A DNA stretch of 34,306 bases from a virus: the UHGV virus genome UHGV-0121572, one strand, 5' to 3'. The notes under the pieces were generated by a model, which was not told the DNA's origin, ran no database searches, and was given only the letters and a program-made list of their open reading frames with translations. The position numbers and the translations under genes were made by a program. Shown in pieces: positions 1-13,363 of the stretch (positions are counted from its first letter, which is position 1; the number at the start of each line of letters is the position of its first letter).

Positions 1-9
1 TTAGCAAGG

Positions 10-29
10 TTGTGTACATTTGTACACAA
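10..29. promoter_or_regulatory. Perfect inverted repeat TTGTGTACA-TT-TGTACACAA just upstream of the TetR-family gene; candidate autoregulatory operator
   Basis: 9-bp arms read directly from the sequence, ~20 bp upstream of the likely ATG at 50; TetR-family operators are typically palindromes overlapping their own promoter. Confidence 0.3.
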
Positions 30-49
30 TTGCAGACAGAGGAAATGAC

Positions 50-586
50 ATGCGTCGCGCTAACGATCCGCAACGGCGAGAAAAAATTATCCAGGCCACG
101 CTGGAGGCGGTGAAACTTTACGGAATACATGCTGTTACGCACCGCAAAATTGCTACCCTTGCCGGGGTACCGTTGGGATCGATGACCTACTATTTTTCAG
201 GAATTGATGAGTTGTTGCTGGAGGCGTTCAGCAGTTTTACTGAGATTATGTCCCGGCAATATCAGGCATTTTTTAGCGATGTTAGTGATGCTCAAGGCGC
301 ATGCCAGGCTATCACCGATATGATCTACAGCTCACAGGTTGCAACGCCGGATAATATGGAGCTGATGTACCAGCTCTACGCGCTGGCTAGCCGAAAACCG
401 CTATTAAAAACGGTAATGCAAAACTGGATGCAGCGCAGTCAGCAAACGCTCGAACAATGGTTTGAACCCGGAACCGCCCGCGCGCTTGATGCGTTTATTG
501 AGGGGATGACGCTGCATTTTGTCACCGACCGTAAGCCGCTATCGCGCGAGGAGATTTTGAGGATGGTTGAGAGGGTTGCAGGGTAG
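50..586 (+). CDS. TetR/AcrR-family transcriptional regulator (probably host gene flanking the prophage)
   Basis: ORF 20..586 (TTG at 20); in-frame ATG at 50 preceded by GAGGA RBS; N-terminal HTH-like segment (…[25 protein letters not shown]…) typical of TetR family. Confidence 0.75.
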
Positions 587-604
587 TAGATAAATTTTAG
601 ATAA

Positions 605-630
605 CAAAAAACCCATTTATGTAAATGGGT
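605..630 (-). terminator. Rho-independent terminator for the leftward int/ORF161 transcript
   Basis: A6 run followed by stem ACCCATTT / AAATGGGT on + strand, i.e. hairpin followed by U-run on the - strand, downstream of the - strand ORF ending at 732. Confidence 0.45.
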
Positions 631-731
631 TAGAAATAACAATGAGTTGCAAGACAATCAATAAGTTAGGTTAGTGATAAGGAGTGGCGATTACGGGACA
701 ATGCCAACCGCTGCCGCCACTTTGTCGCCAC

Positions 732-1217
732 TTATACCGGAGATTTGTCATTTCCCCATAAAGGGAGGCTGGTGCTGAAGATTGCACGTTCGCAATCAGT
801 CTCAAGTTTCTTCTGAGCAACCTTTTGTGGGATAAATCGACACTGATTTGTGCGGCGGTCATACTTGATTTTAGCCTTTCCAATCTCAATAGCCCGCCAG
901 CCAATAGTACGATGTATTACAGCATCTATAGTCCTAAGACATCTCAGTTTACCCTGAATGACGAACTTTTCTTCGGGATTAATTGTGCAGGTGAGTTCTC
1001 CTGAAAAAGTCCAATCACCTTCTGCTTTCTCTAACTGTATATGTATGAAATGTGGATAAGAAGTAGAGATGTCACCTTCATTGCCCCAATCAACTTTTAC
1101 CAAAGACTCATAGTTTTTTGTTTTAGATGATTGATAAATAGGTTGATATGCAGCAGGGATGATTACAACTGCCCCAACTGCAGCCACAACTGAAAAAAAA
1201 TCCGCAATGCCGGACAT
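732..1217 (-). CDS. Hypothetical membrane-anchored protein (161 aa) immediately downstream of int
   Basis: ORF 732..1217; hydrophobic N-terminus (FFSVVAAVGAVVIIPAAY); 40-bp gap after int stop, same orientation; no recognisable catalytic motif. Confidence 0.5.
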   Translation of the reverse strand: MSGIADFFSVVAAVGAVVIIPAAYQPIYQSSKTKNYESLVKVDWGNEGDISTSYPHFIHIQLEKAEGDWTFSGELTCTINPEEKFVIQGKLRCLRTIDAVIHRTIGWRAIEIGKAKIKYDRRTNQCRFIPQKVAQKKLETDCERAIFSTSLPLWGNDKSPV

Positions 1218-1257
1218 AGCTTTACTCTATTAAGGGAAGGTGCGCTATTTTAACGTG

Positions 1258-2301
1258 TTAGCTGTTTGCTTCAAGGTTCGTTGCTTTAGTGGAAAGTGTG
1301 GCTAATGGATTGAAACGCAGTGCTGTTTCAAGGTGATCAGGGGCAAGATGTGCATAGCGCATAGTCATTTTTATATCGTGGTGGCCCAGGATTTTTTGTA
1401 AAGCAAGAATGTTCCCGCCGGACATCATAAAATGTGCTGCGAACGTATGGCGTAGAACGTGGGTAAGTTGCCCGCGTGGTAGTACGATCGAGGTTCTATC
1501 CATCACGGCTAAAAACTGGAAGTAGCAGTCAGTAAATAATTTGAAGCCGTCTAGGGCAACAATTTCCTCATACAGCTCTTTGCTGATCGGAATGCTGCGG
1601 TTTTTTTTGCCCTTAGTTCTGACAAATGTGATTCGGTATTTCGTGACCTGAGAACGTGTCAGGTTCACAGCTTCGCGCCAACGTGCTCCGGTGCTCAAGC
1701 AGATTTTGACGACAAGAGCGAGCAGGGGGCTTTGGCGTTGACAGTCGAACAGAAGCTCTGTGATTTGTTCATGTGTCAGCCAGGCCATTTCTTTTTCGGC
1801 AATGGTGAATTTACGCATGTTCTCCAGTGGATTTGGTGCTGTCCATTCACCGAGTCGGGCTAACTCGCTAAAGACCCCACTCAGATAGCTTTGCTCCAGA
1901 TTGATAGTTACCGGGCTGGCTCCTTTCTTCCATTTTTCGCTGAAGTAGATTTCACCCGTCAGGCGCTTATCGCGATAGTGCGCGAACATTTTGGATGTTA
2001 GATCGGTGGCGAGGGGATTTCCGAGAGCATCGACCATCAGTATCAACTTGTCGTAAACATGCTCGCCAGCGGTCAGGGATTTGCCGTGCAGTTTGAACCA
2101 GAGTTCAACGATATCCTGTAGAGTTCGACGGTCTACCGATTCACCAAGCCAAGGCTTAGCTTCTGCCTCCTCCATCGTGTGACGCTCAAAAGCTAATGCT
2201 TCGCCTTTGGTAGCGAACTGTTTACGCACGCGACGCCCGCTGCGTCCGGCGGGGTAACATTCGCAAAGCCATTTCCCTGTGGTTAGTTTTCGTACTGCCA
2301 T
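1258..2301 (-). CDS. int: Tyrosine integrase, P2 Int family
   Basis: ORF 1258..2457 but the P2-Int-like N-terminus MAVRKLTTGKW… begins at the ATG at 2301 with GGAGGG RBS; C-terminal catalytic region (…LRHTFAAHFMMSGGNILALQKILGHHDIKMTMRYAHLAP…) with the conserved R…HxxR…Y arrangement. Confidence 0.9.
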   Translation of the reverse strand: MAVRKLTTGKWLCECYPAGRSGRRVRKQFATKGEALAFERHTMEEAEAKPWLGESVDRRTLQDIVELWFKLHGKSLTAGEHVYDKLILMVDALGNPLATDLTSKMFAHYRDKRLTGEIYFSEKWKKGASPVTINLEQSYLSGVFSELARLGEWTAPNPLENMRKFTIAEKEMAWLTHEQITELLFDCQRQSPLLALVVKICLSTGARWREAVNLTRSQVTKYRITFVRTKGKKNRSIPISKELYEEIVALDGFKLFTDCYFQFLAVMDRTSIVLPRGQLTHVLRHTFAAHFMMSGGNILALQKILGHHDIKMTMRYAHLAPDHLETALRFNPLATLSTKATNLEANS

Positions 2302-2489
2302 AAAAAATGCCCTCCAGTAGAGAGCATTTTCACTGTATGTATAACCAGTGTCAATGTATGAAATCCTACGACCATACATCTCACTGAAGCCATAATTAAG
2401 TTGGCTATTCTTTTTGCTATGTGAGCATGTAATTTTTGCGGTTAACCTGCGGCTCATTTTTATTTTAGGCGCAGATATAAAAGCAAAAG

Positions 2490-2681
2490 TTATCGTGAGT
2501 TTTTAGTACAGATTTTTTTGGATTTACTAATAGTTCCATCATTGCAAACAAATTTGCCATCTGAGGTACAGTGAGAAACACCTCCCTTTTTCCCTGAACA
2601 GGGATAATTTCTAGCATAGGTAGTTAGTGGGTTTAATAACAAAGAACATGACAAAACCACAAAAAATACCTTACCAAGCAT
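2490..2681 (-). CDS. Small Cys-rich secreted protein/peptide (63 aa) between int and cI
   Basis: ORF 2490..2708; internal ATG at 2681 has a strong GGAGG RBS; N-terminal signal-peptide-like segment [23 protein letters not shown] then a Cys/Gly/Lys-rich mature part. Confidence 0.45.
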
Positions 2682-2697
2682 AGTTTTCCTCCCGGTA

Positions 2698-3354
2698 CTA
2701 TTTAACATACTTGACTGTTAAACTTATAATTTTACCAATTATTTCAATGTCTTCTATCTTGCATTCGAAGGCTCTGTTTCCACCCTCGACGAAGATTCTT
2801 CCACCGGGTAAACGAGTAATGTCACGGATCGTTATTTCGCCATCAATACTTATTACCCATTTACCATCACGTATATCATCAAATTCCTTATCACAAATAA
2901 ATTCAGAATTATTATCTGTGATTGCAAAAATATTCTTGAATGCCGACGGTAGAAATTCCCTATCGAAAATATAAAAACCGTCTTCACATAAGGCCCCATC
3001 AGATAATACATATTTAGCAACTTCCATAGTATTTGTATTTGCTGATGCTTGCTTTGAACCATGCCCTGTTGTTAGCCAATTAAGCGAGGTGCCCGTTTCA
3101 AGGGCGCACTGGATTACCCAATCTGCTGGAAAAATATCACGCATATAGCGCGTTGCCATGGTGCTCTTAGAAACACCTAAATGATCACAGAGAGCCTGAC
3201 GGGTACCGAACCCATATGCTTCAACTAAACGTTCTATGGCTTTCTTACCGCCGCTATTGAAATCCACAAGTCCTCCAAAGAAATCCAAAATTCGTTGACA
3301 GATTCCAAAAGCGATCTTAAAGTTGAACCAGAAGTGTTCTTTTGGAGCCTTCAC
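2698..3354 (-). CDS. cI: Phage 186-type CI immunity repressor
   Basis: Recalled similarity to 186 CI: N-terminal CI-type HTH (…[25 protein letters not shown]…[15 protein letters not shown]) and C-terminal domain (…[25 protein letters not shown]…); divergent from the rightward early operon; exact start uncertain. Confidence 0.8.
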
Positions 3355-3412
3355 TACTAATCACGACAAACAACGGCTCGCCACAAGCCATATCTAGAAG
3401 GAATGTTGCCTT
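3355..3412. promoter_or_regulatory. Lysis-lysogeny switch region between divergent cI and apl (expected pR/pL and operators)
   Basis: Position only: 58-bp gap between the divergently transcribed repressor and the first early gene; individual promoter elements not resolved. Confidence 0.3.
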
Positions 3413-3616
3413 ATGACACCTAACATTTCAATTACTCTGAATACACCACATGTCACAATCGAACGTTATAGCGAACTGACTGGCCTTTCTATTGATACGA
3501 TTAACGACATGTTGGCTGATGGCCGACTACCTCGTCATCGTCTTCGTAAAGACAAAAAACGTGAAAAGGTAATGATTAACCTGGCTGCTCTGACTGTTGA
3601 TGCTTTGTCTGCTTAA
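3413..3616 (+). CDS. apl: Apl/Cox-like excisionase / early transcription regulator
   Basis: 67-aa ORF, first gene of the rightward operon opposite cI; small basic HTH-like protein (…[34 protein letters not shown]…). Confidence 0.7.
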
Positions 3617-3680
3617 TAGACGTCTATTTTCGCAATAAGACGCTGAGTTCGATTTTGCGATAAGTTCGGAGTTGAAAACC

Positions 3681-4190
3681 ATGTTTGATTACCAAGTTTC
3701 CAAACATCCACATTTTGATGAAGCCTGTCGTGCATTCGCACTGCGCCACAATCTGGTGCAACTGGCAGAACGTGCAGGCATGAATGTGCAGATTCTGCGG
3801 AACAAACTGAACCCAGCTCAACCTCATTTATTAACCGCACCAGAAATTTGGTTGCTTACCGATCTGACTGAAGATTCAACGCTGGTAGATGGTTTTCTGG
3901 CACAGATTCACTGCCTGCCATGTGTACCGATTAATGAGGTAGCAAAAGAGAAACTGCCGCATTACGTCATGAGTGCAACTGCAGAGATAGGACGTGTCGC
4001 GGCAGGTGCGGTTTCTGGCGATGTAAAAACCAGTGCAGGCCGTCGTGATGCGATCAGCAGCATTAACTCTGTTACACGACTGATGGCGCTGGCTGCTGTT
4101 TCATTGCAGGCCCGTTTACAGGCTAATCCTGCGATGGCGAGTGCAGTTGATACCATGACTGGTCTTGGTGCTTCATTCGGTTTGCTGTGA
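3681..4190 (+). CDS. cII: Phage 186-type CII lysogeny establishment regulator
   Basis: ORF 3672..4190 (TTG); ATG at 3681 after GGAG; recalled near-identity to the 186 CII N-terminus ([45 protein letters not shown]…[23 protein letters not shown]…). Confidence 0.8.
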
Positions 4191-4197
4191 GGTGCTT

Positions 4198-4494
4198 ATG
4201 CTTACGAAAGAACCATCATTTGCATCGCTGCTGGTAAAACAAAGTCCGGCAATGCACTACGGTCACGGCTGGATCACGGGTGAGGATGGAAAACGCTGGC
4301 ATCCATGTCATTCACAAGATGAATTGCTGTCTGAATTGACCACGAGGAAACGGAGAAAGTCCAAATGTATGCGGCAGAAAGTGAAGTGGTTTATCAGTTT
4401 CGTTACAGAGGGGAGAGTTATTCAGTACCTGAAGATGATTTGCTCTGTTGCTATCCGTCATTGTCGGGCGATGGCAGTTACTTTTTCACGTTAA
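4198..4494 (+). CDS. Hypothetical early protein (overlaps the next ORF out of frame)
   Basis: ATG at 4198 with GAGGTG just upstream, immediately after the cII stop; the tail overlaps ORF 4365..4589 in another frame, so the true 3' extent is uncertain. Confidence 0.35.
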   Translation: MLTKEPSFASLLVKQSPAMHYGHGWITGEDGKRWHPCHSQDELLSELTTRKRRKSKCMRQKVKWFISFVTEGRVIQYLKMICSVAIRHCRAMAVTFSR

Positions 4495-4589
4495 AGGATG
4501 GGACGTTTTTACGGGGAGAGCAGGTTAAAGAGACGATACGAAAAAATGTATCTCCTCTTGAGCGTTACCGTAAGAACAAAGAACGATAG
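4365..4589 (+). CDS. Hypothetical early protein (74 aa)
   Basis: ORF with GGAGAAAG RBS upstream; balanced charged composition; in the fil/dhr-equivalent position of 186-like early operons. Confidence 0.45.
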   Translation: MYAAESEVVYQFRYRGESYSVPEDDLLCCYPSLSGDGSYFFTLKDGTFLRGEQVKETIRKNVSPLERYRKNKER

Positions 4590-4611
4590 CTGCGTTTGGG
4601 GGATATGAAGT

Positions 4612-4953
4612 ATGGCAATTAATGGCGCTGCAGCAACTGTTCCATTAAGCCCCGGTGAACGCCTGAATGGACTTAATCACATTGCGGAGTTAAGGGCGAA
4701 AGTTTTTGGCCTGAATATTGAGTCAGAGCTTGAGCGGTTTATTAAAGATATGCGTGATCCACGGGATATCAATAATGAACAAAATAAACGGGCACTGGCT
4801 GCCATATTCTTTATGGCAAAAATTCCAGCTGAACGTCATAGCATCAGCATTAATGAGCTGACCACTGACGAAAAGCGGGAGCTGATTAAAGCAATGAATC
4901 ATTTTCGTGCAGTGGTGAGCTTATTTCCCAGACGGCTAACCATGCCGAATTAA
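4612..4953 (+). CDS. Hypothetical early protein (113 aa)
   Basis: ORF in the early operon between cII and the replication gene, same strand. Confidence 0.55.
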   Translation: MAINGAAATVPLSPGERLNGLNHIAELRAKVFGLNIESELERFIKDMRDPRDINNEQNKRALAAIFFMAKIPAERHSISINELTTDEKRELIKAMNHFRAVVSLFPRRLTMPN

Positions 4954-5020
4954 CCAACTAATGAAATTAATGGCGTAAACCCGCCGGGCATCCCTTTATC
5001 TAAATTCAGGAGAATTAATT

Positions 5021-5254
5021 ATGCGTAATATTGAAACCCTCACGACTAAAACCGGACCGGATGACGCAGGGCTTAATATTTTACTGACAGAGGCTCGTCT
5101 GGAAGAACGCCGGGCAAGGGCAGAAGCAATGGCAGCTCGCCTTGATAGCCTGGCGTGTCATATCACATCCCGCCAGCTAAACCACGTCGAAGCGGCAGAA
5201 CTACTGCGTGTAACTGCTGAAGCAATCCAGAACGAAGCGCAGGAGATCCACTAA
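5021..5254 (+). CDS. Hypothetical early protein (77 aa)
   Basis: ORF preceded by AGGAGAA RBS; stop overlaps the start of the next gene. Confidence 0.55.
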   Translation: MRNIETLTTKTGPDDAGLNILLTEARLEERRARAEAMAARLDSLACHITSRQLNHVEAAELLRVTAEAIQNEAQEIH

Positions 5255-5481
5255 TGGCTGATGCAATGGATCTCGTACAGCAGCGCGTTGAAGAAGAACG
5301 CCAGCGCCATATTCGTGCTGCCCGTGCCAAAACACCGGGCGTGTCTCGCGTGCTTTGTATTGAATGTGAAGCGCCAATTCCGCCAGCACGACGCCGCGCC
5401 ATTCCGGGAGTGCAGCTTTGCATTACCTGCCAGGAAATCGCAGAGCTGAAAGGCAAACATTACAACGGAGGTGCTGTATGA
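5254..5481 (+). CDS. TraR/DksA-family C4 zinc-finger protein
   Basis: 75-aa ORF with CIEC…(x17)…CITC four-cysteine spacing characteristic of DksA/TraR zinc fingers; stop overlaps dam start (ATGA). Confidence 0.65.
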   Translation: MADAMDLVQQRVEEERQRHIRAARAKTPGVSRVLCIECEAPIPPARRRAIPGVQLCITCQEIAELKGKHYNGGAV

Positions 5482-6335
5482 GCACCATCCTGAAATGGGC
5501 GGGAAATAAAACCGCCATTATGTCCGAACTGAAAAAACACCTTCCTGCTGGCCCGCGACTGGTTGAACCTTTCGCGGGTTCCTGTGCTGTGATGATGGAG
5601 ACGGATTACCCCAGCTATCTGGTTGCGGATATTAATCCTGATTTAATCAACCTCTATAAAAAGGTTGCCGCTGATTGTGAATCGTTTATATCTCGCGCCA
5701 GAGTTTTATTTGAGATCGCAAACAGGGAGGTGGCTTATTACAACATAAGGCAGGAGTTTAATTACTCCACTGAAATTACTGATTTCATGAAAGCGGTATA
5801 TTTCCTGTATCTCAATCGTCACGGTTACCGTGGTTTATGTCGCTATAACAAGAGCGGGCATTTCAACATTCCCTACGGTAATTATAAAAATCCGTATTTC
5901 CCTGAAAAAGAAATTCGCGCATTTGCAGAAAAGGCCCAGCGAGCAACGTTTATCTGCGCCAGCTTTGATGAAACGCTGGCGATGTTGAAGGCGGGGGATG
6001 TGGTGTATTGCGATCCGCCGTATGACGGTACGTTTTCCGGCTATCACACTGACGGCTTCACTGAAGATGACCAGTATCACCTGGCATCTGTTCTTGAACA
6101 TCGGTCATCAGAAGGACATCCGGTCATTGTTTCTAACAGTGACACATCCCTGATCCGTTCGCTGTATCGCAATTTTACTCACCACTACATCAAGGCAAAA
6201 CGCAGCATCGGTGTGGCAGCTGGCGAGGGTAAATCAGCAACAGAAATCATTGCTGTTTCCGGGCCGCGCTGCTGGGTGGGATTTGATTATTCGCGTGGAG
6301 TGGATAGTTCTGCCGTGTACGGAGTACGTGCATGA
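5478..6335 (+). CDS. dam: Dam-like DNA N6-adenine methyltransferase
   Basis: ORF 5418..6335; ATG at 5478 with GGAGGTG RBS gives N-terminus [11 protein letters not shown] (AdoMet motif) and catalytic DPPY motif (…[10 protein letters not shown]…); stop overlaps start of A. Confidence 0.85.
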
Positions 6336-8746
6336 GTCATGCCGATATGAACAACTGCTGCGGCTTTAACGAAGCTGCCGCATCGTTCTCATGGAACAGC
6401 CCGAAAAAGGCCATTAACCCTTATCTGGACCCGGTGGAAGTTGCGCCGGTTTCTACGCTTTCAAACCTGATCACTCTGTACGCTGCCGATAACGAGCAGG
6501 AACAGCTGCGCCGTGAGGCGCTGAGTGATCAGGTCTGGGAGCGTTATTTCTTTAATGAATCCCGTGATCCTGTCCAGCGCGAAATGGAACAGGATAAGCT
6601 CATTAGTCGGGCAAAGCTGGTGCATGAGCAGCAGCGTTTTAATCCGGATATGGTCATTCTGGCGGACGTCAACGCCCAGCCTTCCCATATCAGCAAGCCG
6701 CTGATGCAACGTATTGAATACTTCAGCAGCCTTGGCAGGACAAAGGCTTATTCCCGCTATTTACGTGAGACGATTAAGCCATGTCTGGAACGACTGGAGC
6801 ATGTACGCGACAGTCAGCTATCTGCATCTTTTCGCTTTATGGCAAGCCATGAAGGGCTGGACGGCCTGCTGATCCTGCCTGAAATGAGTCAGGATCAGGT
6901 GAAACGCCTGTCCACCCTGGTAGCTGCGCATATGAGTATGTGCCTTGATGCCGCTTGTGGCGATTTGTATGCCACCGATGACGTTAAGCCAGAAGAAATC
7001 CGCAATACATGGGAAAGGGTGGCAGCGGAAACCCTGCGTCTGGATGTAATCCCGCCTGCGTTTGAGCAACTCCGTCGGAAAAGAAACCGCCGTAAACCCG
7101 TGCCCTATGAACTCATTCCGGGTTCGCTGGCGCGTATGTTGTGCGCCGACTGGTGGTATCGGAAATTATGGAAGATGCGTTGCGAATGGCGGGAAGAGCA
7201 GTTGCGTGCTGTCTGCCTTGTCAGCAAAAAAGCATCTCCCTATGTCAGCTATGAAGCCGTGTTGCATAAACGTGAGCAGCGCCGTAAGTCGCTGGAGTTT
7301 TTCCGTTCTCATGAACTGGTGAACGAAGACGGCGACACGCTGGACATGGAGGATGTGGTAAACGCCAGCAGCAGCAACCCTGCGCATCGCCGCAATGAGA
7401 TGATGGCCTGTGTTAAAGGTCTGGAGCTTATCGCGGAAATGCGCGGTGACTGCGCCGTTTTCTACACCATCACCTGTCCGTCACGTTTCCATTCCACGCT
7501 AAATAACGGCAGGCCCAACCCGACCTGGACAAATGCGACGGTAAGACAAAGCAGCGATTATCTGGTCGGTATGTTTGCTGCATTTCGTAAGGCGATGCAC
7601 AAAGCCGGGTTGCGCTGGTATGGCGTGCGGGTGGCTGAGCCGCATCACGACGGCACAGTTCACTGGCACCTGTTGTGTTTCATGCGCAAAAAAGACCGCC
7701 GCGCCATTACTGCATTGTTGCGTAAGTTTGCTATCCGTGAAGACCGCGAGGAGCTGGGCAATAACACGGGGCCGCGCTTTAAGTCTGAGCTGATTAACCC
7801 GCGCAAAGGAACGCCGACAAGCTACATAGCGAAATACATCAGTAAGAACATTGACGGGCGTGGTCTGGCTGGCGAGATCAGCAAGGAAACGGGTAAATCT
7901 CTGCGTGATAACGCTGAATACGTGAACGCCTGGGCGTCTTTGCATCGTGTTCAGCAATTCCGCTTCTTTGGCATTCCGGGGCGTCAGGCTTACCGTGAAC
8001 TGCGATTGCTGGCTGGTCAGGCGGCAAGGCAACAGGGGGACAAAAAAGCAGGTGCGCCGGTACTGGATAACCCGCGCCTTGATGCCATCCTGGCTGCTGC
8101 TGATGCTGGTTGTTTTGCCACCTACATCATGAAGCAGGGCGGCGTACTGGTTCCCCGTAAATATCACCTCATCAGAACCGCTTATGAAATCAACGAAGAG
8201 CCGACCGCCTATGGCGATCACGGCATTCGTATTTATGGCATCTGGTCACCTATTGCAGAGGGCAAGATCTGCACTCATGCAGTGAAGTGGAAAATGGTTC
8301 GTAAAGCCGTTGACGTTCAGGAGGCGGCAGCCGACCAGAGCGCTTGCGCCCCTTGGACTCGTGGCAATAACTGTCCCCTTGCTGAAAATTTGAACCAACA
8401 GGAGAAAGATAAATCAGCTGATGGGGACACCAGAACGGATATTACCCGCATGGATGACAAGGAGTTGCACGATTTTCTGCACAGTATGAACAAAAAAGAG
8501 CGCCGGGAACTGGCTGCAAGGTTACGCCTGGTGAAACCGAAACGGCGTAGAAACTACAAACAGCGAATTACAGACCATCAACGACAGCAGCTCGTCTATG
8601 AACTGAAGTCCAGAGGATTTGATGGCAGCGAGAAAGAGGTAGATTTACTCCTTCGCGGTGGCAGTATTCCGTCAGGAGCAGGCCTGCGTATCTTCTATCG
8701 GAACCAGCGTCTGAAGGAAGATGATAAGTGGCGGAACCTGTATTAA
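6332..8746 (+). CDS. A: Replication initiation endonuclease (P2 gpA / 186 A family, rolling-circle initiator)
   Basis: 804-aa ORF, last large gene of the early operon; size, position and internal region (…[13 protein letters not shown]…[14 protein letters not shown]…) consistent with P2 A-type replication protein. Confidence 0.85.
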
Positions 8747-10365: not shown

Positions 10366-11589
10366 ATGAAATATTCAATTGATAAATTGGTTCATAAAGA
10401 TGAATTTAATAACAATTTCGAAATTGACCTTGGAGGGAGAAATTTAATTATTACTGGTAATAATGGTTCGGGAAAGACAAATTTATTAAAAAGATTGTAT
10501 TCTGTTTTAGAGCAGAGATTGGTTAGTATAGGGGATAATACCTTAACGAAGGCCATAGAAAAGCTGAACGAAGCTGAGGAACAATTAAGGAAACGTTTGC
10601 CTGGTGATTCATTATATGATTATTTTCTTAAACAGAAGAACGAAGCTACAAGGTTTATTGATAATGAAAAGAAATTTTCAATAACTTTTAATGATGAGAG
10701 GGATTTCAAGGTTTCAATTCATGAAAGAAAATCAATCATCAGATTTTTCGAAGCAACGCGGCAGGCGAGTATACTAGGTGATGGATCTATCTCAGGGATG
10801 GAAAAATTACTTCAAGAACACAAACAGCTATCGCTGACCAAGGATTCAGGTATATTATTTGAACGCTATTTAGTCTCTTATTGGAACTACGGGTTGCTGC
10901 AGAAGGGAAGTGGGAATGATATAGAGGCTGAGCGTGTTTTCAGCTGGATAGAAAAAATAAATCAAGATTTGAAAGTGTTGTTTGAAGATGAGTCTTTAAC
11001 GCTTGATTTTAATCTGGCAGAATTACGTATTTACTTAAAACAAAACGGTAAAGCACCTTTCAGATTAGATCAATTGTCGTCAGGTTTTTCATCAGTACTA
11101 TCTATTTATGCGGATTTGTTAGTAAAAGTTGAACTTGAAAAACTCGCACGTCACGAAATTTCAGGGATCGTTTTGATTGATGAAATTGATGCACATCTTC
11201 ATGTCACCCTACAGAAAAAGGTTTTCTCGTTTTTTAGTTCAGCTTTCCCAAATATACAGTTTATAATAACAACTCACTCTCCATTTGTTGTTCAATCTGT
11301 ATCGGATTGTATTATTTTTAATTTATCCACTTTAGAAACAATGTACGATCTCTCTATGTATTCTTACACGTCAATTATAAAAGGATTGCTAGGGGAAACT
11401 TCAGAGTCTGACACTCTAAAAGAAAAAATTAAATTGTTGGAGTCAATTTATAACGATCAGCAAATTAATGTTTTAGAATTGCAGAAGGTAGTCGGAGAAC
11501 TTGAGCCATATATTGATAAGATGGATGCAGCTTCGAAAGTAAAAATAGCCCTAGCTCAGAATAAAATCATTGAGATTCTAGGGGGGTAA
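10366..11589 (+). CDS. ABC/AAA-type ATPase (AAA_15/AAA_21-like; Septu PtuA-like defence ATPase candidate)
   Basis: Walker A GNNGSGKT near N-terminus, ABC-signature-like LSSGF, Walker B VLIDEIDAHLH and H-loop TTHSP near C-terminus; visibly AT-rich; 5-bp gap to downstream HNH gene. Confidence 0.8.
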   Translation: MKYSIDKLVHKDEFNNNFEIDLGGRNLIITGNNGSGKTNLLKRLYSVLEQRLVSIGDNTLTKAIEKLNEAEEQLRKRLPGDSLYDYFLKQKNEATRFIDNEKKFSITFNDERDFKVSIHERKSIIRFFEATRQASILGDGSISGMEKLLQEHKQLSLTKDSGILFERYLVSYWNYGLLQKGSGNDIEAERVFSWIEKINQDLKVLFEDESLTLDFNLAELRIYLKQNGKAPFRLDQLSSGFSSVLSIYADLLVKVELEKLARHEISGIVLIDEIDAHLHVTLQKKVFSFFSSAFPNIQFIITTHSPFVVQSVSDCIIFNLSTLETMYDLSMYSYTSIIKGLLGETSESDTLKEKIKLLESIYNDQQINVLELQKVVGELEPYIDKMDAASKVKIALAQNKIIEILGG

Positions 11590-11594
11590 TTATT

Positions 11595-12266
11595 ATGTTT
11601 AATGTTTCTAGGGTTGCTCCAGCCCCTGCCTGTTTAGCCCGTAAGACTTATAATGATCCTACGGTTGTTGCCGCGTTAAAAAGTATGTTCTTTGGTAAGT
11701 GTTATTTATGTGAGCAAGTTGATCTTACCGATCCAGAGATTGAGCATTTTACTCCTCATCAGGGCGATACATTGCTAAAATATAGCTGGGAGAATTTATT
11801 TTATTCTTGTCGTCGTTGTAATAGTATTAAAGGCACTCGACATACTAATATTCTAAATTGTACGGATTCCAGTGTAAATGTCACCAACGAGATTGTACAT
11901 ATATTACCGGGGATTAGCTCTGAAAGGGTAACTGTTCGTCCTTTTTCTTCAAATCCTAGCCAAGAGACATTAAATACAGTAGCGTTGCTTGATGAATGTT
12001 ATAATTTAGACAATACAGGTTTGCGTGGTATTACGCGAGAAAATTTAATGGAAAAAATTTTTGACCATTATTATGAGTATATAAATGTTAGACGAGTGCT
12101 GATCACTAGAACTAGTATACAGAGTAGAATCGATGAAGCTATTGAAACACTAAAAATAATGTGTAACCCAAAATATCCTTTTTCAGCGTTTTGGGTATGG
12201 CATTTTAAGCTCGATGTTCGGCTACATGAGTTACGGCCTGAGGTTTTAGAGGTTATTGACGTGTAG
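11595..12266 (+). CDS. HNH endonuclease (Septu PtuB-like nuclease candidate)
   Basis: CxxC…EH…N…CxxCN arrangement (…GKCYLCEQVDLTDPEIEHFTPHQG…WENLFYSCRRCNS…) typical of zinc-bound HNH nucleases; GGGGG RBS; co-oriented with upstream ATPase. Confidence 0.75.
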   Translation: MFNVSRVAPAPACLARKTYNDPTVVAALKSMFFGKCYLCEQVDLTDPEIEHFTPHQGDTLLKYSWENLFYSCRRCNSIKGTRHTNILNCTDSSVNVTNEIVHILPGISSERVTVRPFSSNPSQETLNTVALLDECYNLDNTGLRGITRENLMEKIFDHYYEYINVRRVLITRTSIQSRIDEAIETLKIMCNPKYPFSAFWVWHFKLDVRLHELRPEVLEVIDV

Positions 12267-12319: not shown

Positions 12320-13363
12320 TTATATGATACTACCGAACAATTCATAGGGGATAAAGTTGATAACTATTTGTCCCAGTCGATTATTTAATTCTTTCATTCG
12401 TTCTTGAAGGGGAATGAGTTCATTTCGCACAAAAACTCGACTCGCCTTCTCCACATCCCCAAATCCCCCGACATTATTTGGCATAATTCCCATCATCTGA
12501 GGCGGTACGCGGTGCGCAGCCATCATGTCATCGCGGCTGACATTTTTGATATTCAGAAACTCATCCTTCGCCGCGACCTCTGACAACGGGATAATCTGAA
12601 GCCCGTCTTTTTTGCCGTTAGGCGAGTACATAAACAGGTTGCGGAAGTTACCCGGTCCTTTGGCGCTTTTCATCGCGTTGCGGAGGTTGTTCACGTCCTC
12701 CTGGTTCTGCGCGGCATCGGTCATGTACATGATGAAGCCCGCATGACTGCCGTTAATGTAATACTTGCGACGGAACAGCGTGGCGGACTCATTGAGCAGG
12801 GCTGACGGAATAGCAGAAAGATAGCCGGGCAGGCCATAGATCTCCTGATTTATGTCCGGTTCCATCAGATGGAAAATGCTGCCTTTCGTGAACTGATACG
12901 GCTGCGTGGTCATGCCGTATTGCACAAACCAGTAGGTATCCAGGTCTAACCCGCGTCGGGTGTATTTTGCCAGCGCAGGTTCAAGGGCGATAACTTCACC
13001 GAAGCGGTTCGTGCGTTTCTCCAGATAGGCGTTACCAAATACCAGATAGTCCTGTACAAAACGCGAAAAAGCCTGTTGGCTGAGCAGCGGATGAGGGATA
13101 TAGGTACTGGTCAGAATGTTGCACTTTACTGCAATCGGGGAACTGTGATGCACGGCAGCGCGGAAGGTGCGCGCCAGTCCGTCAAAGCTGACGGGCGGCT
13201 CATACCAACGGTCCATCTGTACGCATTCCACATAGTCCAGTAATTCTCGGCGGTCCAGAACTGGAACGGGATCGCCGAAGCTGAATGCTTCGGCTGTAGT
13301 CTGGTTTTTATGCTGGATCTGATTCGTCGCCGCAGTGCGGTTTTTCTTACTCTTTCCCATCAA
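12320..13363 (-). CDS. Q: Portal protein (P2 gpQ family)
   Basis: 347-aa ORF in the conserved leftward Q-P pair, start overlapping the stop of the terminase ATPase gene; size and context match P2 Q. Confidence 0.85.
   Translation of the reverse strand: MMGKSKKNRTAATNQIQHKNQTTAEAFSFGDPVPVLDRRELLDYVECVQMDRWYEPPVSFDGLARTFRAAVHHSSPIAVKCNILTSTYIPHPLLSQQAFSRFVQDYLVFGNAYLEKRTNRFGEVIALEPALAKYTRRGLDLDTYWFVQYGMTTQPYQFTKGSIFHLMEPDINQEIYGLPGYLSAIPSALLNESATLFRRKYYINGSHAGFIMYMTDAAQNQEDVNNLRNAMKSAKGPGNFRNLFMYSPNGKKDGLQIIPLSEVAAKDEFLNIKNVSRDDMMAAHRVPPQMMGIMPNNVGGFGDVEKASRVFVRNELIPLQERMKELNNRLGQIVINFIPYELFGSII

Follow-up and report, generated by a model that had tools for sequence, protein, structure and literature searches.

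A YdcA-family gene between the repressor and integrase genes of a 186-like prophage

What does a 186-like prophage encode between its repressor and integrase genes, where phage 186 itself has no gene, and can the product be expected to act in the lysogen? This question is raised by the UHGV virus genome UHGV-0121572, a stretch of 34,306 nucleotides that we call the window, in which a short open reading frame (ORF) on the minus strand (2490..2681, stop codon included) stands between cI (2698..3267) and int (1258..2301), both on the same strand. We found that this ORF is a genuine and conserved protein-coding gene under strong purifying selection, and judging from its sequence it is a functional member of the YdcA family (PF27300, NF007463) carried by the prophage. 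That a real, exported protein of this family is expressed from the prophage we consider very likely. The gene is already catalogued as a member of the family, and the finding is genuine but not new.

The reading frame was read directly from the sequence and has 63 codons, from ATG (2681-2679) to TAA (2492-2490). Its start lies 16 nt beyond the stop codon of cI (TAG, 2700-2698), and a Shine-Dalgarno sequence GGGAGG (2693-2688) follows the cI stop by 4 nt and precedes the ATG by 6 nt. An earlier reading of the window, made from its letters without database searches (the sequence-only reading), had claimed a strong ribosome-binding site (RBS) and a 63-aa product between int and cI, and both claims agree with these positions. 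We also considered a 72-aa version beginning at an in-frame ATG at 2708 and rejected it, because it has no RBS and would start within the last cI codons with an 11-nt overlap with cI, and because RefSeq and the family models back the 63-aa form. The GC content is 34% in the ORF, 36% in the segment 2302-2697, 37% in the spacer 2302-2489 and 51% in the whole window.

Evidence that the frame is translated came from its substitution pattern. Among 82 near-identical copies drawn from viral and genome collections there are nine alleles, with 15 synonymous against 2 non-synonymous variable sites, and the two amino acid changes are T20A, which lies in the signal peptide, and R24K. In diverged prophage copies, a core of 32 codons keeps 81-97% amino acid identity while the synonymous sites are near saturation or saturated (proportions of synonymous and non-synonymous differences, pS 0.6-1.0 and pN 0.03-0.16), and the N-terminal 20-25 residues are unrelated. 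Conservation of the frame in related prophages had been proposed by the sequence-only reading as its own test, and the frame was found to be conserved there, leaving that reading unrefuted.

Assignment of this coding sequence (CDS) to the YdcA family is supported concordantly by several collections. The NCBIfam model NF007463 (PRK10040.1-2) matches with 115.2 bits, above its curated cut-off of 93 (E=8.1e-34), the PHROGs match is phrog_6000 (E=2.9e-34), and RefSeq names the identical protein WP_000900883.1 "YdcA family protein". The Pfam family PF27300, named YdcA, is precomputed on nearly all homologues; no Pfam family was found for the ORF in the Pfam copy that we searched, which the PF27300 model postdates. 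The window protein has no match to DUF3761 (PF12587) at E≤1 in Pfam, and sub-threshold traces of that domain (E=0.4-0.6) appear only on P0102 and P0105, two relatives with tandem repeats. The motifs CSxHGGV and CxDGxxSxS presumably resemble DUF3761, a likeness that we take merely as a lead.

The window protein contains the family core motif PCSGxKGG[VI]xxC...F[VI]CxDG[ST]xSxSK..C with its four invariant cysteines, and by prediction it is a short single-domain pre-protein of the family type, i.e., about 55-65 aa with a Sec signal ending in Ala. YdcA of Escherichia coli K-12 (b1419, YDCA_ECOLI), which is covered by PF27300 and the PRK10040 models, is 57% identical to it over 53 residues. Each is a single-domain pre-protein (57-63 aa) that begins with a signal peptide, and they have in common the four-Cys core PCSGxKGG[VI]SHC...GKFVCNDG[ST]IS.SKK.C. 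The two differ in location, the K-12 gene being chromosomal, beside trg, whereas the window gene stands in a prophage operon. The prophage form is more basic than K-12 YdcA and has a separate NCBIfam model, the window protein scoring 115 bits with NF007463 and 68 bits with the K-12-type model NF007462.

The predicted periplasmic domain and its probable relation to Dis2

The signal-peptide part comprises residues 1-23 (2613..2681, minus strand). It has a lysine at position 4, a hydrophobic stretch of 12 residues (V5-L16; Kyte-Doolittle 9-mer means 1.9-2.7), a proline at position 18 and T-Y-A at -3 to -1, after which signal peptidase I (SPase I) is predicted to cut, and the signal-peptide-like N-terminus that the sequence-only reading had noticed is borne out by these characteristics. 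Ala23, at position -1, is invariant across 29 aligned homologues, the N-termini of which are otherwise unrelated. The mature domain of 40 aa (Arg24-Arg63; 2493..2612, minus strand), delimited with two alignments, AlphaFold2 and composition, is predicted to have a mass of 4.3 kDa (4293 Da, less 4 Da with two disulfides), a pI of 9.7 and a net charge of about +7. It carries every invariant column of the 29-sequence alignment, namely P27, C28, S29, K32, G33, G34, C38, F44, C46, D48, G49, S52, S54, K55 and C58. The cysteines, previously given as six, number five (C12, C28, C38, C46 and C58); the four in the mature part are conserved, and C12, in the signal peptide, is not. AlphaFold2 run with the family alignment modelled the product as a short helix and a beta-hairpin, with block-mean pLDDT of 84-92 over residues 31-60. 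A variable hydrophobic leader, an invariant Ala at -1 and a near-frozen mature domain together are the signature of a secreted protein, and we infer that the product would be exported by Sec, cleaved after Ala23 and reside in the periplasm as a strongly basic (+7) mini-domain of 40 residues held by two disulfides.

When the model was searched against PDB with Foldseek, the sole notable match was chain AN of 7MUC/7MUD (probability 0.96, E=0.13; 39% identity over 38 columns with 7muc_AN), which is Dis2 of Legionella. Dis2 is a disulfide-rich subunit of the Dot/Icm system with two lobes that are alike in sequence and structure and with five disulfides; it lies periplasmically just under the outer membrane in contact with the lipoproteins DotK, DotC and DotD, had no structural neighbour in PDB at the time of study and has been regarded as Legionellales-specific (PMC8486379, PMC12716638). 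The family profile found the same chain in PDB with E=1.5e-4 and aligned to both of its halves. Against the link it must be said that signal peptides contributed part of this score, a profile of the mature domain alone giving E=0.12. Independent comparisons free of this effect nevertheless came out in favour of the link. For Dis2 homologues whose gene call includes no signal peptide, the YdcA models of NCBIfam are the only matches (E=2-3e-4), in two stretches each (NF007462), and one of these homologues has a precomputed match to PF27300. Comparison of the mature YdcA profile with the Dis2-family alignment by hhalign gave a probability of 83% (E=8.6e-6). An exhaustive search starting from a Dis2 homologue recovered tandem-repeat proteins with units of the type GCCSxHGGVxxC...CKDGTxSPSCKC, and the mature domain of the window protein matches one tandem-repeat protein by BLASTP with E=5e-7.

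Like Dis2, the window protein has a (predicted) signal peptide and a small lobe that disulfides would pin, and the lobes of both proteins carry the motif C-S-x-x-GG-[VI]-x-x-C...G-x-x-V-C-N-[DN]-G-x-x-S. They differ in build, Dis2 having two tandem lobes and five disulfides in about 110-125 aa and the window protein one lobe and four mature cysteines in 63 aa, and in setting, since Dis2 belongs to the Dot/Icm system whereas the window is a P2/186-like prophage with phage genes as neighbours and no secretion-system gene among the ORFs that we examined in it. We regard the relationship as probable but not proven. If the kinship is true, YdcA would be, by remote homology, the single-copy form of a disulfide module that has been duplicated in Dis2 and that, in this single cryo-EM case, binds outer-membrane lipoproteins on their periplasmic face. 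For the YdcA family, the link would bring a first relative of solved structure, and for Dis2 the first relatives from beyond Legionellales.

Longer relatives of the family (P0102-P0106 and P0056-P0062) were also observed. Some are tandem arrays of two or three of the units mentioned above, and others, of about 105 aa, have a YdcA domain followed by a second Cys motif, CxC...CTGPRGGxYC. Such proteins point to a wider superfamily of small periplasmic disulfide modules.

Recurrence of the family behind the CI gene

The gene preceding the ORF encodes a 186-type CI repressor (Pfam Phage_CI_repr and Phage_CI_C; RefSeq) and is the first gene of the lysogenic operon, and the gene following it encodes a tyrosine integrase of 347 aa (Pfam Int_N and Phage_integrase, with the RefSeq start). 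In phage 186, the cI stop abuts the int start with no gene between them, from which it follows that about 395 nt of low-GC DNA (2302-2697) have been inserted between these two genes in the prophage of the window. The left flank of the window is rcdA/ybjJ, and the 186-like prophage must therefore have integrated beside rcdA of E. coli. A 99.9% identical locus is found in E. coli strain 401651. Beyond the divergent promoter region stand an Apl/Cox-like gene, cII and fil, with the replication gene A at a greater distance.

The terminator scan detected no minus-strand intrinsic terminator between cI and int. A candidate pL was placed at 3403..3431 (minus strand; -35 TTGAAA at 3431-3426, a 17-nt spacer and -10 CAACAT at 3408-3403) by its position match to 186, the offsets of its hexamers from the apl/cox start codon being exactly those of the annotated 186 pL. 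The absence of a terminator and the pL-like site at the 186 position together suggest that the ORF would be part of a lysogenic transcript cI-ORF-int-orf161, which probably ends at a hairpin at 631-610, and the earlier placing of the ORF within a leftward cI-int unit agrees with this.

The sequence-only reading considered the size and composition of the product unusual for this position in P2/186, but among relatives the gene is not unusual. It is carried by 630 of 5426 complete E. coli genomes (about 1 in 9), including BL21, whose copy is 93.8% identical in DNA, and the family is found in the same slot in prophages of several genera. Sampled RefSeq copies are all annotated as CDS, bar one partial match, and the exact protein sequence is present on at least 1000 public contigs. 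A scan for the family was positive for 229 species-representative genomes, with gamma-, beta- and alpha-proteobacteria among them, and for 505 viral contigs. With 2300-3400 as the query, megablast found no match among 50,697 phage records, there being no enterobacterial phage with the gene in that collection, and tblastn against the phage records found the family only in Moraxella, Acinetobacter, Haemophilus and Pseudomonas phages.

The slot after a 186-type cI and before int is occupied in E. coli and in a near-identical locus labelled as a Bacillota metagenome-assembled genome (MAG). Three Yersinia species have the same order of cI, gene and int with a CI 36% and an integrase 49% identical to those of the window, and in Buttiauxella the gene stands behind a 186-type cI in a locus that gave no match to int. 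In the Haemophilus phages HP2 and S2, which also belong to Peduoviridae, a 60-aa ORF 54% identical to the window protein lies on the same strand directly behind cI and before int. This ORF (2920-3102 of our HP2 locus L002; about 2486-2668 of NC_003315.1, minus strand) is unannotated in the GenBank records of HP2 and S2. Its ATG overlaps the cI stop (TAATG), which suggests translational coupling, whereas the window ORF has a 16-nt gap and a separate RBS; HP2 differs also in having a second secreted ORF, orf1(S), between the YdcA-family ORF and int. Nine further P2-like prophage loci, in Comamonas, Hydrogenophaga, Iodobacter, Aquabacterium, Kingella and Acinetobacter, carry the gene between an HTH_3 regulator and convergent gpD/gpU genes. 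In Peduoviridae prophages, the position just behind the CI gene is a recurrent one for the family. This repeated placement, between cI and int genes that differ widely, is what most supports the idea of the sequence-only reading that the protein is made in the lysogen, and the conserved position, including the unannotated copy of HP2 and S2, is together with the probable Dis2 kinship of modest added interest.

A variant of 186-like prophages in E. coli and Klebsiella has the order cI, YdcA, KAP NTPase and int, with 11 nt between the YdcA and NTPase genes, and on this ground the cI-int interval is a cargo hotspot in 186-like phages too. The NTPase, a KAP-family P-loop protein (4198-5529 in loci L169 and L175), matches the PADLOC candidate PDC-S20 with E=1e-171 and, more weakly, PifA and QatA.

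Other placements were observed as well. In Moraxella Mcat phages, where it follows the tail T gene, and in one Acinetobacter phage, the gene lies in the tail-gene region. Plasmid copies are found in Acinetobacter and Rhizobium; in the mobilisable (MOBQ) Acinetobacter pittii plasmid pApiMCR53a (3916 bp, five genes), the YdcA-family gene at 728-904 stands beside a traD-like gene. UniRef gives the window protein the automatic name "Conjugal transfer protein", behind which no evidence could be traced, and the traD-like neighbour on this 3.9-kb plasmid is the only link to the name that we have seen. Two 55-kb records typed as E. coli plasmids, NZ_CP148585.1 and NZ_CP148400.1, contain a cI-ydcA-int region 96.8% identical to that of the window; such records may represent prophage DNA in episomal or excised form, or else contigs that were assigned wrongly.

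Chromosomal copies are found beside trg in E. coli and in core-gene contexts in Moraxella bovoculi and uncultured bacteria. In six Atlantibacter and Citrobacter loci, the ydcA homologue lies downstream of trmD-rplS. Behind it come DUF2946 and PepSY_TM genes in the same orientation and next an OmpA-family gene in convergent orientation, a neighbourhood that is a possible functional clue to metal or the envelope. An apparent placement after int in two loci of Atlantibacter and Citrobacter was discarded, these being chromosomal ydcA loci that merely neighbour an integrase. When we searched for a conserved downstream partner, the next genes in Moraxella bovoculi, HP2, Mcat17 and the Acinetobacter plasmid showed no similarity or shared domain.

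Possible role in the lysogen and rival explanations

On the reading that we think likely, the ORF is a functional YdcA-family gene of the lysogen, with a periplasmic product that would act at the envelope. The gene would share the pL transcript of the lysogen with cI and int, would also be transcribed from a CII-activated establishment promoter, and would be translated from its own strong RBS independently of cI. After Sec export and cleavage behind Ala23, the periplasmic two-disulfide domain would bind, most likely and by remote homology to Dis2, an outer-membrane-proximal component of the envelope. The envelope might be altered to the benefit of the prophage, either by exclusion of phage or plasmid DNA or by tolerance of envelope or acid stress. 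Action as an exclusion or envelope-fitness factor of the lysogen is speculative, and we propose it tentatively; a lysogenic-conversion factor, as the sequence-only reading suggested, is plausible. A tiny and near-invariant periplasmic domain that is encoded behind the repressor of P2/186/HP-type prophages in several genera, and also on plasmids and in other phages, is a good candidate for an envelope-level factor of the lysogen, and the gene would matter once the function of its family had been solved.

The best functional and positional precedent is Glo of the Vibrio cholerae phage K139, an analogue and not a homologue. K139 is P2-related, and the gene for its periplasmic Glo belongs to the PL lysogenic operon, with cI on one side and int on the other; GenBank describes the protein as "involved in phage exclusion". 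Glo differs in being 137 aa, not Cys-rich and devoid of the YdcA motif, and hhalign of the family against it gave a probability of 5% over the first 8 signal-peptide residues only, i.e., no homology. The cI-int interval has been described as a defence hotspot in K139-like phages (PMC9122126), and 8% of P2 defence systems reside in the interval from integrase to primase (PMC13586616). Like prophage morons and the cargo of P2 hotspots, the window gene is low in GC, interrupts a gene order that is conserved elsewhere and would be expressed from the prophage; unlike morons, it has no promoter or terminator of its own flanking it in our scans, and no defence model matched it.

Several points weigh against this picture of an envelope-acting lysogen factor. 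The -10 hexamer of the candidate pL is poor, and the site was not listed by the consensus promoter scan. At E≤0.01, neither the window protein nor a 61-aa variant matched any family of PADLOC-DB 2.0. Nearly all E. coli already have a chromosomal paralogue, and the many chromosomal, non-mobile members of the family argue against a purely phage-directed function. The only known phenotypes of the YdcA family are those of the chromosomal gene, namely sensitivity of an E. coli W deletion to 3-hydroxypropionate and a reported acid induction, at pH 5 under YdcI (PMC7642389), and Dis2 is dispensable and has no known function (PMC12716638). Transcription, translation, export, cleavage and disulfide formation of the product are, moreover, all predicted steps.

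A broader reading, which we find doubtful, is that the YdcA module is a general outer-membrane-adjacent adaptor used repeatedly by mobile elements, and that the prophage copy blocks the entry of competitor DNA, for which it may dock on a conserved outer-membrane lipoprotein or a peptidoglycan-associated protein. Its examples would be the copies behind the repressor in Peduoviridae, those in the tail region of other temperate phages and on small mobilisable plasmids, and the duplicated form in Dis2. If true, it would provide the first function for a pan-proteobacterial orphan family, and Dis2 would have thousands of single-lobe relatives.

Returning to the YdcA protein as a disulfide-held periplasmic domain, we weighed other explanations of the same data. 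The four invariant cysteines, together with the nearly invariant His37, could instead be ligands of Cu or Zn in a periplasmic mini-protein that serves metal or redox homeostasis of the lysogen. The pair of DUF2946 and PepSY_TM genes may be associated with metal uptake clusters, and such genes follow the homologue in Atlantibacter and Citrobacter. Yet the periplasm is oxidising, neither CxxC nor a classical metal motif is present, and the prophage gene has no metal-related neighbour. In the related lobes of Dis2, moreover, five clear disulfides are seen in the cryo-EM density (PMC8486379), and we judge metal binding to be improbable.

The close linkage of YdcA and KAP NTPase genes in E. coli and Klebsiella prophages, at an interval which in K139-like phages is a defence hotspot (PMC9122126), and the strong match of the NTPase to PDC-S20 raise the thought that YdcA is one half of a two-gene anti-phage system and the window copy a remnant of it. 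The NTPase-linked variant, however, was found in 9 complete E. coli genomes against 630 with the solitary form, purifying selection on the solitary gene is strong, the PDC-S20 model describes a single-gene candidate, and YdcA stands alone in Yersinia, HP2, plasmids and chromosomes. We accordingly attach only a small probability to this explanation.

Receptor-blocking lipoproteins are a known type of exclusion factor of temperate phages, and V-L-S-C at residues 9-12 loosely resembles a lipobox, so that a Cor/Llp-type outer-membrane lipoprotein anchored via Cys12 and blocking a phage receptor may come to mind. Cys12 is, however, unconserved, the residue preceding an aligned Cys in those close relatives that have one is F, I or V, unfit for a lipobox, homologues for the most part lack a Cys ahead of the AxA-type site, and the conserved structured part starts only after Ala23. 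We rejected this reading, which is very unlikely to be correct.

A small, cationic (+7) and disulfide-rich product with an export signal, encoded next to cI, might also be a secreted signal or toxin, i.e., a defensin-like cationic bacteriocin or a peptide for lysis-lysogeny communication. This is hardly credible, given that the leader is of the Sec type and not a double-glycine leader, that no exporter, immunity or receptor gene is adjacent, that there is no hint of passage through the outer membrane, that many species have housekeeping-like chromosomal copies and that the homologue Dis2 is a structural periplasmic subunit. Finally, a chance or decaying frame from which no protein is made, as the shortness of the ORF, the AT-richness of the cI-int spacer (34-37% GC), the lack of a match in the Pfam copy used and the absence of the gene from 186 might suggest, is refuted by the excess of synonymous sites in the 82 copies and the conserved core at saturated or near-saturated synonymous sites, and is opposed likewise by the strong RBS, the score above the curated cut-off and the 229 species-level genomes and 505 viral contigs.

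Spacer, integrase and other neighbouring genes

Between the ORF and int lies a non-coding spacer (2302..2489, minus strand), delimited by the promoter scan and the sequence, which includes the int RBS. The ORF list gave int 399 aa from an ATG at 2457, which we regarded as an over-extension because RefSeq starts the gene at 2301 and a GGAGGG RBS is located 8 nt upstream of that start; the extension of 52 codons, which would span most of the spacer, is probably not translated. Just upstream of the int RBS, the scan found a promoter-like site on the minus strand (TTGACA at 2354-2349, 17 nt, GAAAAT at 2331-2326), and int may have this promoter of its own (2354-2326) besides pL. Bases 2391-2497 have no counterpart in related prophages, and an Rfam scan of 1-5000 gave no match, hence no sign of a known RNA in the spacer. 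A terminator-like hairpin with a T-run was also noticed inside the spacer, on the plus strand at 2436-2452.

After int, in the place of 186 orf69, stands an orphan ORF of 161 aa (732..1217, minus strand; in the ORF list and a hypothetical protein in RefSeq), for which Pfam, NCBIfam, PHROGs and PADLOC gave no match. It has a hydrophobic N-terminus and a GC content of 41%. It is probably the last gene of the lysogenic operon and a second candidate for a cargo gene expressed in the lysogen. A terminator-like hairpin with a T-run (610..631, minus strand), found by the terminator scan at a place equivalent to the predicted terminator of 186, is the candidate end of the operon.

On the plus strand, the window also carries a Septu anti-phage system (10366-12266), which occupies a recognised cargo hotspot of P2, here delimited by the replication gene A (6332-8746) and the portal gene Q (12320-13363). 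It consists of PtuA (10366-11589; PADLOC E=1.5e-124) and PtuB, which has an HNH domain (11595-12266; E=2.6e-83).

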